In this document: piece by piece, positions 14,519 to 39,416 of the stretch
Numbering within the stretch: the stretch's first letter is position 1
How the letters are laid out: every line of letters begins with the position of its first letter
NCBI GenBank assembly: GCA_016212505.1
Contig: JACRGB010000003.1
Coordinates: forward strand, 27,561 to 91,560
DNA length: 64,000 nt
From: Candidatus Micrarchaeota archaeon
Lineage (GTDB): Archaea; Micrarchaeota; Micrarchaeia; Anstonellales; Bilamarchaeaceae
Direction: 5' to 3'
Made by a program: the position numbers and the translations under genes
The notes under the pieces: generated by a model
The model's database searches: none
What the model was told of the DNA's origin: nothing
Seen by the model: the letters and a program-made list of their open reading frames with translations, nothing else

Positions 14519-14569
14519 GGACAAAATTTCATAAATTTTGTCCGAATTGGAATTTATACAAATTCCAAT
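14519..14569. repeat. Mini-palindrome array II (2 units)
   Basis: GGACAAAATTT-CAT-AAATTTTGTCC; ATTGGAATTT-ATAC-AAATTCCAAT. Confidence 0.85.
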
Positions 14570-14655
14570 ACGATAAAAAAACGAATGAAATTATAAAAAA
14601 AGAATTTATGAACGAAATGATGCGAAATATGAATAGAAAACAAAGGTGATTAACT

Positions 14656-17534: not shown

Positions 17535-17810
17535 ATGGAAAGGAAGAAAGTCATAGATATAGTAAGGAAAATTATGTCTAAAAGTCATATAAAAAGAGCC
17601 TACCTCTTCGGCAGCTTTGCCAGGGGACAAAAAAAATATAACGACATAGACATAGCAATAGACCCCCCGAAAGGCTTTACTCTGCTTGATTTGTCAAGAA
17701 TAGCCAATAGCATAGAAGATCAAACAGGACGTAATATTGATCTGGTTACTATTCGTGCAATGAACCCGAAGATTAAAAATGCCATCAAAAAAGAGATGGT
17801 AGCGATATGA
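17535..17810 (+). CDS. mntA: Minimal nucleotidyltransferase (MNT) antitoxin
   Basis: LFGSFARG...DIDI motif. Confidence 0.9.
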   Translation: MERKKVIDIVRKIMSKSHIKRAYLFGSFARGQKKYNDIDIAIDPPKGFTLLDLSRIANSIEDQTGRNIDLVTIRAMNPKIKNAIKKEMVAI

Positions 17811-18139
17811 GTAAGGATCCGAATTTTTATCTGGGTCATGTGATTGAAGCCATAGAAAAGATTCAGAAATACACTAAAGGTTTTGATAGATCAGATTTCT
17901 TAGAAAATGAACTGGTGCAGGATGCAGTAGTCCGGAACATTGAAATAATTGGAGAAGCAGTTAAGAATCTGCCAAATGACTTTAAGAAAAAACATTCAAA
18001 TGTCCCTTGGAGGGATATTGCAGGAATGCGTGACCGGATCGTTCATTTTTATTTTGGCATAGATTTCGAATTAGTGTGGGATACTATCGAAACGGACATA
18101 CCAGAACTTGAGAAAAAGATCAGTAAACTGATTAAATAG
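17807..18139 (+). CDS. hepT: HEPN/DUF86 ribonuclease toxin
   Basis: DAVVRNIEIIGEA, GMRDRIVHFYFG (RxxxxH). Confidence 0.92.
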   Translation: MSKDPNFYLGHVIEAIEKIQKYTKGFDRSDFLENELVQDAVVRNIEIIGEAVKNLPNDFKKKHSNVPWRDIAGMRDRIVHFYFGIDFELVWDTIETDIPELEKKISKLIK

Positions 18140-18164: not shown

Positions 18165-18680
18165 TTAACGATATAGCGCCACTTCCATCCAAGCAAGATA
18201 GGTCTTTTTTACTCCTTTTGAATCGTTGTAAATGGAAACTACGCGCCTTATTTTAACGACCTCGTTCGGCGCATCTGGCAGGTTGCCACCAATTGAGAAA
18301 ACGATTGGTTTTTGCGAATTTGAAGAATCGGAAAGTTCAGTTACATTGATCGAAACATTATACGGAGTTCCAAGCTTCTGCTTTAGCCAGTCCTGGTTAC
18401 CCTGGCCTTTCTTTAATGCACATTCCATAGTTGATGCATTTAGCCTTCGGTCGTCCACGCTGAGGGCAAAGCCTAAGCTTTCAAGGTCCTGGCAGTTAGC
18501 GGATGAGCCGGAAACAGAAAGAAGCTGGTTGGAAATGCGCACAGAGTCTTTGGAAAGTGATGCACCCTGATAATCAAGATAGTTCTTTACTGAGTGCCAG
18601 TATGAGAGCAAGGCAACAAGTGCAAGAACAAAGATTACAGAGGCAACAATTGCATCAAAACTGAAATATTGACCACGCAT
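18165..18680 (-). CDS. Class III signal-peptide (pilin-like) protein
   Basis: MRG/QYFSFD followed by a hydrophobic helix. Confidence 0.75.
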   Translation of the reverse strand: MRGQYFSFDAIVASVIFVLALVALLSYWHSVKNYLDYQGASLSKDSVRISNQLLSVSGSSANCQDLESLGFALSVDDRRLNASTMECALKKGQGNQDWLKQKLGTPYNVSINVTELSDSSNSQKPIVFSIGGNLPDAPNEVVKIRRVVSIYNDSKGVKKTYLAWMEVALYR

Positions 18681-19355
18681 TTATTCACCCTCAAGCTGTG
18701 ATATAGTTAATTTTTCACCGTCGTTATTTAATATTAGAAGGTTAGTGCATTTATTGCTTTGGATAATATATTGCCCAAGCTCCTGGGCAATGCACCCATT
18801 GCCATTATCAACTTGATAATCATAAGCAGGCACCTTATATGAATAACTAAAAGTTCCGTAAGGGCCCTGCCAATCAAGAACTAGGTTATAATTTTTATTC
18901 GGTAGGGTAATATTATAGGGATAACCAAGTATGGTTTTTGGGAAAGTATAGTTATAGGAAAATCCGCGGCCGCCCTGGACGCCAAGAGCAATTGCATTGG
19001 AAAACCCTTCACCAACGCCTTGCGCAACAGTATTTTGCCGTAGGGGAATTTCTGAGGATTGTATATTGTTAATGACAATAAAGGCAGCTATAACTAGCAC
19101 CATAAAAACAGAGATGTATAACATGAATTCGGCAGCCACCTGTGCGCGCAGGTGGCTGGCAGCGAACGGAGTTCGCTCAACCGCGACTTGCCCACGCAAG
19201 TTGCGGGCATGGCAAGAAATACCTTGTATTTCTTGACAGTCTTGAACGGATCGCCGTTCAAGGACAGAAAACGAAGTTTTCTCAACAGCGACCTGGCCTC
19301 GAAAGTAGCTGACTTGCGCCTTTTTAGAATTGTTTTTTTGTTTAACCTGGTGCAC
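18681..19355 (-). CDS. Class III signal-peptide protein with palindrome-derived N-terminal extension
   Basis: RA/QVAAEF + hydrophobic helix, preceded by KAQVS and two RGQVAVE copies. Confidence 0.75.
   Translation of the reverse strand: MHQVKQKNNSKKAQVSYFRGQVAVEKTSFSVLERRSVQDCQEIQGISCHARNLRGQVAVERTPFAASHLRAQVAAEFMLYISVFMVLVIAAFIVINNIQSSEIPLRQNTVAQGVGEGFSNAIALGVQGGRGFSYNYTFPKTILGYPYNITLPNKNYNLVLDWQGPYGTFSYSYKVPAYDYQVDNGNGCIAQELGQYIIQSNKCTNLLILNNDGEKLTISQLEGE
19133..19282. repeat. Mini-palindrome array III (6 units), in-frame within the pilin-like gene
   Basis: CAGCCACCTG/CAGGTGGCTG; AGCGAAC-GGA-GTTCGCT; CCGCGACTTG/CAAGTTGCGG; CAAGAAATAC-CTT-GTATTTCTTG; CTTGAACGG-ATCG-CCGTTCAAG; AGAAAAC-GAA-GTTTTCT. 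Confidence 0.85.
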
Positions 19356-19776
19356 TAAGTTCCACCTTACCGTTATTGTTCACCAGAGTAATTGGTAGAA
19401 GTCCGCTCTTTGCCTTAAGGTTCTGCTCGTAGTAGTTATTTTTATTATTACTAGAGATATTCGCGATCGTTGGGGAAACTGCCTCAAAATTACCTGACGA
19501 GGTTTTTATGGTGATAATGATTTCGCCACTTTTAGCCTGGAGAGATTCTGTGGACGAAGGAAGGTTCAGTACGACAACGCGCTTTGCACCATTTCCCTGC
19601 GCAAAAACAAAATCAGCGGCTTCAGCTAGAGAGCGGCTCGATGATTCTGCCTGGGCCTTGGCAGTATTCTCATAACCTACTGAATTTAGCGAGAATAAAA
19701 GGAACAGGACCGGCACGGTAAATGCTAGCACAATTGCGATTGTGACAAAAAGTTCCATTGAAGATTGGCCCTTCAT
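19342..19776 (-). CDS. Class III signal-peptide (pilin-like) protein
   Basis: MKG/QSSMEL followed by a hydrophobic helix. Confidence 0.8.
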   Translation of the reverse strand: MKGQSSMELFVTIAIVLAFTVPVLFLLFSLNSVGYENTAKAQAESSSRSLAEAADFVFAQGNGAKRVVVLNLPSSTESLQAKSGEIIITIKTSSGNFEAVSPTIANISSNNKNNYYEQNLKAKSGLLPITLVNNNGKVELSAPG

Positions 19777-21392
19777 TGCTTACACCCCGCACCGCTTTTG
19801 CATGAAAGTGGATCCAAAACATAGTCCTTTATTGCAGTATCGCTGAGGGTAAATATTCCAGTTGTAGGGCTATCCGAACACACTTCGGCATTTCTGCAAC
19901 CAGGAAGGCCACGAAGCGGGGAGTATACTGGTTGTGAGCTAAACAGCTCGCGATCGAGCCTGCTGCGGCCAAATAAGACCTTATTTGAATATTCACCGAC
20001 GACAAAAGTTTCGATACCGAATTTCTTATCAGATAAAGAATATGAACCAACCATAAGATGCTGTAAATAGGATGGCGCTTTTTCATTGTGGGTATAGTAG
20101 CCACACATTACAAAATCACGCAGCGGCTCGATATTGAAGATCCCTGTTGAGGAATCGGATTTGTACGTTTTCTTATCCGGATCGCTCAAAACATCGGATG
20201 GAGAGGATTTAGCGATTATAAGAGCACAGCGGCGCTGTTTGGTAGGGTCTGATGAGGAATCAGGACAAATGCCTGCAGAAAGCGGATCAAAGCCAAACGA
20301 AATCACAAATGGTTTTCCCATATAATCTGGGCCGCCCCATTTTATTGGTTTGCAGTTCTTATCATACTTAAGGGGGTTGAACGTAGTTGCAGGATCCTCA
20401 TCTTGCTTAGGGCAAAGGGAAGGAGGTTCAAGGAGGGGATTGGAAGTAATGATGTAGCCTCCAAAAAGTTTATAGATTTCTGGTTTAAGCTTGATTATAT
20501 CATCATATTTACCGACAATTATGTATTGGCTGGCATTGCCCAGAACTTCTGGATCCTTTGCGAATTTGACTGACGGATCATTACTGGGAGTTGCACTCGC
20601 CAGATAACCGTAAAACCATCCCTGGCCTTCTTCGCTTGGTTTAATTTGACTAACAGATACTTTTGATTTATCAGGATACTCGCTCGTGTTAAAGAAAAAT
20701 TGCCTTCCAAAGTGCTGGTTTAAATTTGAGTCTATACTTGCCTTTGCAAGGGCAGGATCAATCAGTCCGGTAACCTCAAGATCCCCGCTAAGAGGATAAG
20801 TCCTTGAAACTGAGGAACTATTCGAAGTATCTTTTAATTCCAAATGAAGGACCAGAGAATAGTTGACTTTGTCAATAGCGCTTTGGTTTAATGCGAAACC
20901 GGAAATTTGGTAAGAGCTGACATAAACTCCGGTTGAAAGCAATGAGGCATTTAGGCCACTTATCCAGGCAGTAAGGGAAGAATTCTCATTGGAGGGATTT
21001 GCCTGATCAGGCGGAAGCCCCTGGAAATCCTTTTTATCTGCAACTCCGCTCAGCAGCATCTGGTACATGGCATTTCTTATGTGGATGTTTTGGTCATTAT
21101 CCGGGCCTTTCAATAGAGGATATTGTATTGCATTTTGGTTTAGCTTGAAGAGGTTTCGGGCCATTATCTCATGTGTAATATTTCCGACTTTGGCTGGAGT
21201 TATCTGGCTGATTGCAAGCTCAACTGCAGATTGCTTATAGAAATCTGAAAATGAGCGCTCGGATGTTTCCACTGCCTTGACCCATACGGATATGGAAAGC
21301 AGGATGTATGCGAGAATAAGGAATACGGTAACGGTAAAGAGGAACCCTTTCCGGTCATTTTTTTTGTTATTTGTTTTCTTATTGCTGCGCAT
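19773..21392 (-). CDS. Large class III signal-peptide protein (minor pilin/adhesin-like)
   Basis: RKG/FLFT + hydrophobic helix; Cys-containing extracellular region. Confidence 0.7.
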   Translation of the reverse strand: MRSNKKTNNKKNDRKGFLFTVTVFLILAYILLSISVWVKAVETSERSFSDFYKQSAVELAISQITPAKVGNITHEIMARNLFKLNQNAIQYPLLKGPDNDQNIHIRNAMYQMLLSGVADKKDFQGLPPDQANPSNENSSLTAWISGLNASLLSTGVYVSSYQISGFALNQSAIDKVNYSLVLHLELKDTSNSSSVSRTYPLSGDLEVTGLIDPALAKASIDSNLNQHFGRQFFFNTSEYPDKSKVSVSQIKPSEEGQGWFYGYLASATPSNDPSVKFAKDPEVLGNASQYIIVGKYDDIIKLKPEIYKLFGGYIITSNPLLEPPSLCPKQDEDPATTFNPLKYDKNCKPIKWGGPDYMGKPFVISFGFDPLSAGICPDSSSDPTKQRRCALIIAKSSPSDVLSDPDKKTYKSDSSTGIFNIEPLRDFVMCGYYTHNEKAPSYLQHLMVGSYSLSDKKFGIETFVVGEYSNKVLFGRSRLDRELFSSQPVYSPLRGLPGCRNAEVCSDSPTTGIFTLSDTAIKDYVLDPLSCKSGAGCKQ

Positions 21393-37652: not shown

Positions 37653-39416
37653 CTACATTTTCATCAGTATAAATTTCGTCATCGCATTTATGAATGCTAT
37701 AGTGACCATAATTGAGAGTGCGGGCATAAATAATGATAGAAGGGTAAGTACCGCAAAGTGCCGCATGATTATTGTAAATTCCGGCATGGGCAGGAGCCCC
37801 AGTACCCCTTCTGAGAAAAAATTACCCAGTGACTTTTGCACCGCAGTCCCTTTGGGAAGGTATTCGAATATTTTCCCCGGTGCAGTAGCGGGATTAAAGA
37901 AATAGCCAAATGCACCGTATTTTACCGGCCCGCATATTGAGTAAATTAAGGTGTTGGGGCTTTGGTATCCCGAAGGCCCAAGGTCCTCATACGCTTTCTT
38001 ATCGATCAGATAACCCATCGGAAAAACAATTTGGAAGCCTAATGCAAATGCCATAAGGAATGCACCTGCATCGCGGGTGGGCGGGAAAAAGTGCAGGATA
38101 AGCCCCGCAGGGAGGAAAAAATTACCCATAGTAGAATCTATGAAATAGAGAAGGCTGATTTGCGCAGATAAGCTGCCATAAACAGCTACGAGCCCATAGG
38201 AAAGGACATTGGAAATAGAAACAAAAGTATCGATTCCAGGAAAAACCTTATAGGTACGGGTAAGCACGGATTCTCCGATCCTTCTTGCATAAACGCTGAG
38301 CATGGAAGTGCAGGACTGTATCGAGTAAACATCATATATGCCGTTTAGTACTGGATCAAGTGCCTTCTCTTGCAGGAAATTTATTGCGGCAAGGGAAGGC
38401 GAGTTGGTATGGTAAGCATCATTTGCCCAAGCTGAAACGATCTGGCTGCCTACAACGAAAAGTCCTGCCACAAAGAGGACAAGAAGGAATGAGCGGAAAA
38501 GGTTGGAAAGTTCGACATTGAGGTAGCCCTCCCATTCAGGAACCCGGAAAACTTTTGAAACTATATAAGTCAGGAAAATTATCAGGGAAACAAAAAAGAA
38601 TACGTTGATCATCAGGTCAGCGTAGGGAGAAATGGATGCGGCAGTGCCTATTTTTGTCTGAAGTATCGAATCAAATGCGCCACCTTTAGCTAAAAAGACC
38701 TTGAATACGACGAAATAGACTATTGCTACAATAAAAGTACTTGCAAGGAGATTATTCGCAAATCCGGTTGCCCTGGCCCGGGTTTCTGCGCCAAACATCA
38801 TCCCGGCAGCATAGAAAACCGCTGCAAGAATAGCAAAGACGATTGTCAGGAATGCAAGTGAATTTTCGGATATGGTTTTTAGGTCGCTGAAGATTTTTAA
38901 GAAATCGACGGATGATGGCTCGCCACCGGCATTAAGGCTGGGCTGGATGATCGAGAGGAGGAAGAACATTATGATTATTACTAACGCCGAAACACCAACC
39001 GCAGTAAGCATGCTTTCAGTCCAGGTAGATGCTTTTGCTCTTAAGTCTGCACCAAACATCTGGCCAATAACATAAACTGAAGCCGCTATTACGATCATGG
39101 TGATTAGGAGAATCCCCATGACAGAAAGGGCAAAGGGAAGTAGGGAATTAGGGGAACTGTTAAGGGCGGATAAGGGATCAATTGGTGGATTGGCGGCAAA
39201 TGAAAATGAGGGCAGGAGTAGCGATAGAAATAGCACAAGCAGGAAGAGCGAGAAAGGAGTTTTTATGTTTTTTATTATATTGGAATTTGCAAATTCCAAT
39301 GCGTGGAGAAATTCTTTGGAATTTCTCCTGTAGCGAACCGTGTTCGCTACGGACAAATTTTTGCGAAAATTTGTCCTTGTAGTCTTCGTGAAGTCCATTA
39401 ATAGCACCCTTTTCAT
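37653..39416 (-). CDS. CedA/VirB6-like protein, paralog 2, with two N-terminal VirB2/TrbC pilin-like repeats
   Basis: Repeats AASVYVIGQMFGADLRAKA and AAVFYAAGMMFGAETRARA; core PAGLILHFFPPTRDAGAFLMA. Confidence 0.6.
   Translation of the reverse strand: MKRVLLMDFTKTTRTNFRKNLSVANTVRYRRNSKEFLHALEFANSNIIKNIKTPFSLFLLVLFLSLLLPSFSFAANPPIDPLSALNSSPNSLLPFALSVMGILLITMIVIAASVYVIGQMFGADLRAKASTWTESMLTAVGVSALVIIIMFFLLSIIQPSLNAGGEPSSVDFLKIFSDLKTISENSLAFLTIVFAILAAVFYAAGMMFGAETRARATGFANNLLASTFIVAIVYFVVFKVFLAKGGAFDSILQTKIGTAASISPYADLMINVFFFVSLIIFLTYIVSKVFRVPEWEGYLNVELSNLFRSFLLVLFVAGLFVVGSQIVSAWANDAYHTNSPSLAAINFLQEKALDPVLNGIYDVYSIQSCTSMLSVYARRIGESVLTRTYKVFPGIDTFVSISNVLSYGLVAVYGSLSAQISLLYFIDSTMGNFFLPAGLILHFFPPTRDAGAFLMAFALGFQIVFPMGYLIDKKAYEDLGPSGYQSPNTLIYSICGPVKYGAFGYFFNPATAPGKIFEYLPKGTAVQKSLGNFFSEGVLGLLPMPEFTIIMRHFAVLTLLSLFMPALSIMVTIAFINAMTKFILMKM
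39279..39376. repeat. Mini-palindrome array IV (4 units), in-frame in the 5' end of the 587-aa gene
   Basis: ATTGGAATTT-GC-AAATTCCAAT; GGAGAAATTC-TTTG-GAATTTCTCC; GTAGCGAAC-CGT-GTTCGCTAC; GGACAAATTT-TTGCGA-AAATTTGTCC. Confidence 0.85.

Follow-up and report, generated by a model that had tools for sequence, protein, structure and literature searches.

A stack of 48-bp, probably mobile double hairpins appears to rebuild the class III cleavage site of a micrarchaeal pilin-like gene

How does a pilin-like gene come to begin with several copies of a peptidase cleavage site, each written in a DNA palindrome? The gene in question lies on the minus strand of a 64,000-nucleotide stretch (the window, C29:27561-91560) of a Candidatus Micrarchaeota genome (G000; loci, genomes and contigs are numbered L, G and C below), and its open reading frame, from a GTG at 19355 to 18681, has the N-terminus MHQVKQKNNSKKAQVSYFRGQVAVEKTSFSVLERRSVQDCQEIQGISCHARNLRGQVAVERTPFAASHLRAQVAAEFMLYISVFMVLVIAAF. 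Class III signals carry Glu at +5. The full pattern of such a signal, Lys or Arg followed by Gly or Ala, Gln at +1, Glu at +5 and then a hydrophobic helix, is present here once, with RA preceding the cut and QVAAEFMLYISVFMVLVIAAF following it. EppA-type class III signals of Methanococcus pilins, as the accessible parts of three sources describe them, share the basic residue, Gly or Ala at -1, Gln at +1 and the helix behind it (PMC4390842, PMC4858521, PMC10117864). The Gln, Ala, Glu and Phe of the site are invariant across 22 orthologs, and orthologs come mostly from Candidatus Micrarchaeota. Its neighbours in the same run of genes likewise have class III-like N-termini. The gene does not match the Pfam family Class_IIIsignal (PF04021), which two other genes match below cut-off, and Pfam and NCBIfam hold no curated family for these proteins, so we call them pilin-like on the strength of motif and helix. 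Two separate observations concern the surroundings. A small hairpin cluster in the mature domain of the same gene (window 18770-18820) encodes GNGCIAQELGQY; in the alignment it appears as short insertions relative to most orthologs, and L008 and L016 also have insertions at that loop. Two small adjacent genes (window 17535-18139), which we take to resemble a nucleotidyltransferase/HEPN toxin-antitoxin pair, converge on the run of pilin-like genes.

The palindromes are not products of chance. Six hairpins of at least 6 perfect base pairs lie within 19133-19311, against a mean of 0.29 and a maximum of 3 in dinucleotide shuffles, none of which (0/1000) reaches 6. Read along the gene, the order is KKAQV, A1, TTG-B1-(57-bp C/D)-GC-A2, TTG-B2-GC-A3 and native sequence, that is, two whole units and one remnant, with a 57-bp C/D double hairpin nested in the array (Table 1). 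The original prediction had read three GQVA-type motifs as hairpin-encoded with the third decayed, had noted further stop-free hairpin units between them, and had found a hydrophobic stretch behind the last motif only. All of this is borne out: pairing in the three stems is 10/10, 9/10 and 7/10, the B1, B2 and C/D regions are read in frame with no stop between A1, A2 and A3, and in translation only the last motif precedes the helix. The hairpins also lie where they had been placed; the structure as a whole, however, occupies 19133-19325 once the old KKAQV site is counted. At that remnant the Gln-to-Gln distance is 21 nt instead of 48, and the 48-nt period suggests that 27 nt were lost from the first unit. 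The C/D module belongs to a family dispersed in the source genome, with six related modules including this one. An Rfam search of 18500-20000 returned nothing near a gathering score. Over that same interval a public contig is identical to the window and shows no joints or variants; it may be the very source of this DNA and so gives no independent confirmation, and assembled contigs lose rare forms.

Table 1. Features of the pilin-like gene and its hairpin array (window coordinates).
Feature	Position	Strand	Remarks
Upstream class III-like gene (MKGQSSMELF...)	19342..19776	-	Overlaps the start of the focal gene; without unit
SD-like AAGGTGG, putative	19362..19368	-	6 nt before the GTG start, within the end of the upstream gene
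Pilin-like gene, class III (Q+1, E+5) signal	18681..19355	-	224 aa; 71-aa leader if GTG 19355 is the start
Older cleavage-site remnant (KKAQV)	19311..19325	-	TTG-B-GC part of the first unit missing in frame
Hairpin A1	19286..19311	-	Decayed, 7/10 pairs; encodes SYFRGQVA
Unit 2	19181..19285	-	105 nt = 48 + nested 57
TTG of unit 2	19283..19285	-	
Hairpin B1 (unit 2)	19266..19282	-	
C/D double-hairpin module, 57 bp	19209..19265	+	Nested in frame between B1 and A2, opposite orientation
GC of unit 2	19207..19208	-	
Hairpin A2 (unit 2)	19181..19206	-	9/10 pairs; encodes RNLRGQVA
Unit 3	19133..19180	-	Clean 48 bp, with GC between B2 and A3
TTG of unit 3	19178..19180	-	
Hairpin B2 (unit 3)	19161..19177	-	
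Hairpin A3 (unit 3)	19133..19158	-	10/10 pairs; encodes SHLRAQVA
Predicted prepilin-peptidase cut	19142..19143	-	Ala (19145-19143) / Gln (19142-19140); empty orthologs have their one site at the aligned position
Native sequence again	19070..19132	-	Rest of codon +4, Glu+5, hydrophobic helix EFMLYISVFMVLVIAAFIVI

Comparison with orthologs allowed us to deduce the plan of the unit, which is TTG, a 7-bp hairpin B, GC and a 10-bp hairpin A, 48 bp in total. The 3' arm of hairpin A, GGN CAR GNN GCN R, encodes the class III site (G or A, the cut, then Q-x-A), and loop and 3' arm together encode residue -2 through the first base of codon +4. Twenty-seven clean units align at 48 bp without a gap. Among them 90.2% of stem cells pair, compared with 73.9% after shuffling (0/500 shuffles reach the observed value, in a test that relatedness among the units inflates) and 30-44% in slid controls, and compensatory change on both sides is seen in 12 of 17 stem pairs, including all seven of hairpin B. 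The loop of hairpin B itself harbours further double hairpins, 45-51 nt long, at five loci (L040, L047, L100, L123, L140); one family of these is common to two pilin gene families.

Units are found in 22 of 76 distinct orthologs, in one to three copies; by inspection they are absent from the other 54, and a short leader with a single site is thus the usual state. On an ortholog tree of 66 rows (20 filled, 10 truncated rows omitted), which does not polarise gain versus loss, at least 15 gains or losses are required, 14 of them forced by well-supported branches, and filled rows cluster no better than shuffles (58/500). Close relatives can differ: L009 and L083 are separated by a clean 48-bp indel at 93% nucleotide identity, and L224 and L225 have a filled and an empty site. 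Scars that retain hairpin A only also exist (L063). The leaders of L021, L066 and L071 hold repeats of another kind, short tandem repeats, which indicates that the leader tolerates inserts in general.

This distribution bears on the idea that the host keeps the units, as mRNA hairpins or leader peptides that tune pilin translation, export or timing. Such a role is argued for by the strong covariation, by the concentration of units at the 5' ends of one functional class and, chiefly, by the sister pair L011/L012, in which 4 of 51 unit positions differ, yet only 20 of 38 fourfold sites agree. The insert is thus better kept than silent sites, which counts against plain neutrality at that pair. 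A host function is nonetheless hard to reconcile with 54 of 76 orthologs lacking units and at least 15 changes on the tree, with copy numbers from 0 to 3 and other repeats nested inside units, with units at a tRNA end that are antisense and outside the gene, and with L091 and L093, whose units differ though the loci are 94% identical in nucleotide sequence. We regard it as distinctly improbable.

Where, then, does a unit join the gene? TTG follows site position 10 in 49 of 73 upstream copies; among terminal copies it does so in 4 of 59 and among empty sites in 5 of 81. The GC linker is likewise present in 49 of 73. Residue +4 is Ile in 40 of 51 first copies, whereas terminal copies keep the Thr or Met of their family. 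Placement of the TTG and this Ile together put the junction a single base inside codon +4; the unit's own TTG-AG foot accounts for the Glu of the upstream pseudo-sites. Where neighbouring copies differ, the arm follows the downstream copy by 49:1 at the third base of the Gln codon and 45:0 at that of the Ala codon, which argues that the downstream copy arrives with the unit. The original prediction took the leader for the landing site; the unit apparently lands at +4 of the mature protein instead, and it ends up in the leader by virtue of the site that it carries.

At the third base of the Gln codon, 20 of 73 neighbouring pairs of copies agree, compared with 35 after shuffling; seen from the other side, 53 of 73 differ there, as if perfect direct repeats were lost or avoided. 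The likeness of units is 0.69 within one array and 0.65 between loci. In two genomes (G137, G101) paralogous genes have units that are 98% and 90% alike, followed by 90 nt that are 63% and 59% alike. The silent-site and within-array comparisons rule out plain local tandem duplication as the chief origin of the units, the exceptions being L277 and L236, where identical or near-identical neighbouring units fit local duplication. At the same time, residue +2 agrees between copies in 70 of 73 cases and position 10 in 69 of 73. The former indicates that units do not move freely between pilin families, and both, together with the identical neighbours, imply either that the target must match the arm or that arrays are locally homogenised.

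It is also conceivable, and in our judgement unlikely, that no dedicated mobile unit exists and that ordinary homologous recombination, together with gene conversion and slippage, has carried one old insertion from strain to strain and between pilin paralogs, the pairing of the stems being maintained through template-switch repair. The agreement at residue +2 within arrays (70/73), the identical neighbours in L277, the A-only scars that show loss through deletion and the lack of a linked enzyme would all suit such a history, and yeast GC42 clusters are described, in the part of the source available, as crossing species via homologous recombination (PMC4478555). What it accommodates poorly is the fixed junction, with TTG after position 10, silent sites that differ between adjacent copies more often than chance, a TTG-B-GC-A plan that recurs with other targets (the tRNA end at L212, dispersed modules in G000), and a pilin-type unit in a LeuRS-like gene at a place with only a few matching bases.

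Reading frame is strictly kept. With a frame-blind DNA pattern, all 62 spacings between copies (45-105 nt) are multiples of 3; with a looser pattern that also catches the focal locus, 72 of 73 are in frame, and its false steps (L108, 68 nt; L086, 99 nt) include both the sole out-of-frame step and the sole stop. The single stop across 58 arrays is thus a false match, and 21 and 44 of these arrays have stops in the two other frames. The frame is also preserved by the nested inserts, which add 45-57 nt. Other modules of G000 have lengths free of frame (11 at 54, 7 at 55, 6 at 56); as a control for frame, the C/D family is of little value, since five of the six lengths it has in G000 are divisible by 3. 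The original prediction would have been undone by a true start downstream of the array, and spacings that keep frame in 62 of 62 cases speak against one. The long leader therefore appears, as far as sequence can tell, to be translated.

The start codon deserves comment nonetheless. Of 35 genes found with the covariance model, 31 have an ATG ahead of the first copy, and in the focal family (n=21) the starts are 5 ATG, 4 GTG and 8 TTG, with 3 rows having none and 1 running off the contig end. Translation could also begin internally, at an in-frame TTG that the arm encodes three codons before the Gln in 26 of 59 terminal copies. One could accordingly see the array as untranslated 5' sequence, with translation restarting at such a TTG (at the focal locus, 19199) to give a short MRG leader, a view to which the scarcity of ATG in the focal family (5/21) also lends itself. 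Yet an internal TTG would not explain frame keeping, which extends to the nested inserts, nor does it sit well with the lack of stops in any true array or the upstream ATG in 31 of 35 genes; at the focal locus the last arm has CTG, and the only SD-like motif seen stands before 19355, within the end of the upstream gene, an arrangement that orthologs share. An internal restart is, in our estimation, highly improbable.

If the leader is translated, at which site would it be cut? The last copy of the site aligns with the one site of empty orthologs. In the focal family all 21 terminal copies have Glu+5, as do 11 of the 21 first copies (one false row included); in a wider set the counts are 51/51 and 29/51, partly by construction, since 33 of the 51 terminal copies were chosen by a pattern that requires Glu+5. 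We propose that cleavage occurs at the last site only and that pseudo-sites without a following helix would be skipped by the peptidase. A candidate A24-like peptidase of 283 aa is encoded in the genome, on C15 (PF01478, E 1.9e-5, 25.3 bits against a cut-off of 26.5); its gene has no NCBIfam match. Prepilin peptidase takes off only the charged part preceding the helix (PMC4858521, in the portion available), and Gln at +1 has been suggested to be essential for EppA (PMC4390842, likewise). Leaders of the Methanococcus, EppA type measure 3-12 aa, with no upper limit stated in the accessible part of the source (PMC10117864), whereas the focal leader would have 71 aa and repeated pseudo-sites. The earlier proposal, that the cleaved-off leader is a neutral site at which units recreate the peptidase site, is supported, with refinements. 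Hairpin A carries the site codons; removal and neutrality are presumptive, the latter with L011/L012 against it.

The unit extends well beyond one gene family. A search with the A-hairpin pattern revealed units in 6 of 30 loci of a second pilin-like family, where five of the six filled loci have a clear upstream ATG and the sixth is cut by a contig end; as an example, an empty site reads MRKGQAAVEY and a filled one MGKGQAAIE...RRFRGQAAIEY. A covariance model trained on pilin units found matches at three ranks: within the genus, in 19 of 40 genomes (E up to 0.05); within the order, in 40 of 151 (E up to 0.01); and within the phylum, in 12 of 151 (E up to 0.005). Read in context, 54 of 70 matches are class III leaders of several families and 16 of 70 lie elsewhere and are mostly weak (a count that omits three weak order-level matches and a few genus-level ones), and in two further families of the class 7 of 7 matches read, out of 10, are class III leaders; training on pilin units means that both figures overstate target preference. 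The leader families with matches include GQAAME-YL.TYGW, GQGATE-YLVLL, GQAATE-YLIIAG, GQSATE-TMVVL and others. Arrays in other class III leaders, which the original prediction had proposed as a check, thus show up across genomes; within the source genome one of the seven class III-like genes found has units. Long leaders with repeated sites consist of covarying hairpins, so that the other refutation named with the prediction, orthologs with the same long leader and no DNA-level palindromy, does not apply. One unit (L249:550-612, G086) precedes a pilin-like ORF that stops 20 codons into the helix region and is possibly a pseudogene or a stray gene fragment. A viral carrier was also considered; one exact-pattern scan of viral contigs gave 0 matches, and a single strict pattern shows little.

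Units also occur outside pilin-like genes. At L212 an array stands directly behind a tRNA; two of its units follow the TTG-B-GC plan with an A arm that is an inverted copy of the tRNA end, the third is of pilin type, and all lie on the antisense strand of the tRNA, outside the gene. At L257 the N-terminus of a presumably LeuRS-like gene holds a pilin-type unit in frame, at a place where few bases match. Close relatives with filled and empty sites (L009/L083, L224/L225) and unlinked copies (L212, L257) are what is expected of a mobile element.

Double hairpins are, moreover, common in the source genome, which has 192 arrays of at least two hairpins (20 and 41 in two shuffles) and 51 of at least three (1 and 1). 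Relatives of hairpins B, C and D are found at other places in G000; hairpin A has no other copy there and recurs only across genomes, so it is not a dispersed repeat of this genome. Many dispersed double hairpins fit T(T/G)G-B-C-A. Their left flank matches the A end at 3.9 of 10 positions, against 2.8 in shuffled pairs, a comparison that tandem arrays confound, and a strict search for target-matched units gave 4 against 1 in one shuffle, too few to generalise. The pilin unit looks like one specialised member of this wider family.

Several individual cases are recorded here for their own sake. At C36:47963-48040 of G000 a unit at the 3' end of a gene has its target matched by hairpin B, not A, with the EWVQP-stop codons duplicated on its two sides; target matching is here seen in mirror image. 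A 587-aa gene has four in-frame hairpins early in its sequence, ahead of the first hydrophobic stretch (window 39279-39376), and C42:11925 is a similar case. A GGACAAA/ATTGG double hairpin stands between a 127-aa ORF and a dnaG-like gene (window 14520-14575, C29:42080). ARAGORN reports only 7 tRNAs in all in G000, and its long-intron tRNAs (57-193 nt) overlap hairpin clusters (C38:39825-40053, C43:26950-27217, C36:7796-7938, C44:27342-27471).

Which enzyme might move such a unit? Among the Y1 transposases and tyrosine integrases compared across genomes, none is tied to it. PF01797 (Y1/HUH transposase) has no match in G000, an assembly that is 90% complete and whose contigs break at IS-like ends, and Y1 transposases occur in 12 of 40 unit-positive and 29 of 111 other genomes (p 0.68), which lends them no support as mobiliser. 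A family of 406-aa tyrosine integrases is found in 22 of 40 unit-positive and 27 of 111 other genomes (p 0.0007), or 22 of 39 and 25 of 77 within the two main families of genomes (p 0.017), kin not being independent in either comparison; 18 unit-positive genomes lack it, and we set it aside as a weak, lineage-confounded association. Many contigs of G000 end in the same IS-like hairpin ends, CCCCACC...GGTGGGG (e.g. C1:35-114, C2:71-129), probably from a multicopy IS collapsed in assembly, and a transposase may be hidden from the family search in this way. The two tyrosine integrases of G000 (406-407 aa; L266:1084-2304 on C14 and L267:1204-2427 on C38) have a C-terminal CxxC pair; hairpin arrays lie close to them, as does a 24-bp perfect palindrome that the two share.

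We propose that the array probably consists of stacked 48-bp mobile units without genes of their own, which would insert at sites matched by their arm and rebuild them, the added peptide being cut off with the leader. The unit is likely a selfish mobile element that would move as a whole. It would insert into a class III pilin-like gene, one base inside codon +4; its last hairpin would bring a copy of the cleavage-site codons, such that the mature protein is left intact; and the prepilin peptidase of the host would cut the added peptide off along with the leader. Units would thus survive in class III genes because frame and site are restored and the extra peptide is removable. Most speculatively, the unit may travel as a 48-nt single-stranded dumbbell circle, with the 5' arm of hairpin A pairing with the matching target and setting the crossover at the arm end, and with a recombinase of host or element acting in trans; the circle and its crossover at the end of the A stem are suggested by the junction only. 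A bolder version, which we consider doubtful at present, is that the 48-nt dumbbell is a complete DNA-guided mobile element, made of a hairpin as enzyme handle and a 10-base arm by which the target is specified (a pilin site, a tRNA end), that it has colonised class III signals across Micrarchaeota because the host peptidase erases the peptide, and that a change of arm retargets it.

Known systems share parts of this picture. Rickettsia palindromic elements (RPEs) are single stem-loops of 105-146 bp, and their peptide stays in the protein. The unit is, like them, an in-frame, stop-free insertion (62/62 spacings), but it has 48 bp, two separate hairpins and no terminal inverted repeats, and it rebuilds one targeted codon motif, which makes its peptide removable. 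RPEs and intragenic bacterial MITEs are likewise gene-less palindromes that are translated in frame and also occur beside RNA genes; YPAL can help to form a signal peptide and is not described, in the accessible portions of these sources, as restoring a cut site (PMC2229807, PMC10969869). In place of the terminal inverted repeats and short target-site duplication of a classic MITE, the ends of the unit are TTG and the end of the A arm, and its repeated site departs from the upstream copy at silent positions more than chance would have it. Coding palindromes of Methanocaldococcus were reportedly treated by Suyama in 2005. Mitochondrial double-hairpin elements are very short palindromic units akin to GC42. 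The yeast GC42 clusters, as the available part of their description has it, are also very short and sporadic, have stems under selection and no known enzyme, and merge and shuffle their units; they are organellar and GC-rich with a 2-base target duplication, whereas the unit resides in archaeal chromosomes and has a 10-13 base target match in its stem (PMC4478555).

The foot of the unit is TTG in 49 of 73 cases. In REP/REPIN-RAYT systems, which also have hairpin ends, the 5' foot bears a GTAG or CGTC tag. No class of units is tagged in either way, and the linked Y1 (HUH) transposase expected of REP/REPINs or of non-autonomous IS200/IS605 elements has no match in the G000 assembly. Integron attC sites have invariant AAC/GTT core triplets, and the A-stem triplet of the unit varies (AAC, CAC, AGC and others). 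The natural target of IS608 is 4 nt long and is not duplicated. Elements of the IS200/IS605 group such as IS608 nevertheless offer a likeness, with hairpin ends and a target choice by base pairing that recalls the proposed match of arm and target, and an engineered IS608 is described, in the accessible text, as reading targets of 12-17 nt by pairing of element and target (PMC5934647). The unit at L212 duplicates the 3' end of the tRNA. Integrative elements that target tRNA genes restore the gene end, and inteins render their own insertion harmless. In these, as in IStrons (PMC4227781, as far as its available text goes), the function of the target is likewise restored, but the unit has no cargo, ribozyme or self-splicing domain, and removal would be left to the host peptidase. 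In the open-access literature, excluding subscription journals and supplements, we found no report of the unit; newly added here are the position of the junction, the evidence for a carried copy, the sharing between paralogs and the class-wide census.

If this proposal is right, the rebuilt protease site represents a further harmless route for selfish DNA, in which the insert is removed by the host after translation, and the unit is among the smallest known mobile units with a fixed junction and a target-matched arm. The movement of tiny palindromic repeats, such as RPEs, REP-like sequences and mitochondrial double hairpins, would then become testable with a 48-nt substrate. The FlaFind rule expects the helix near the protein start. 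Pilins of Micrarchaeota may therefore escape predictors of this kind, and their prepilin peptidases are predicted to accept leaders of about 70 aa with decoy sites. Should the bolder version be true, the unit would resemble an intein whose splicing is performed by the host, and a swap of arms would amount to retargeting.
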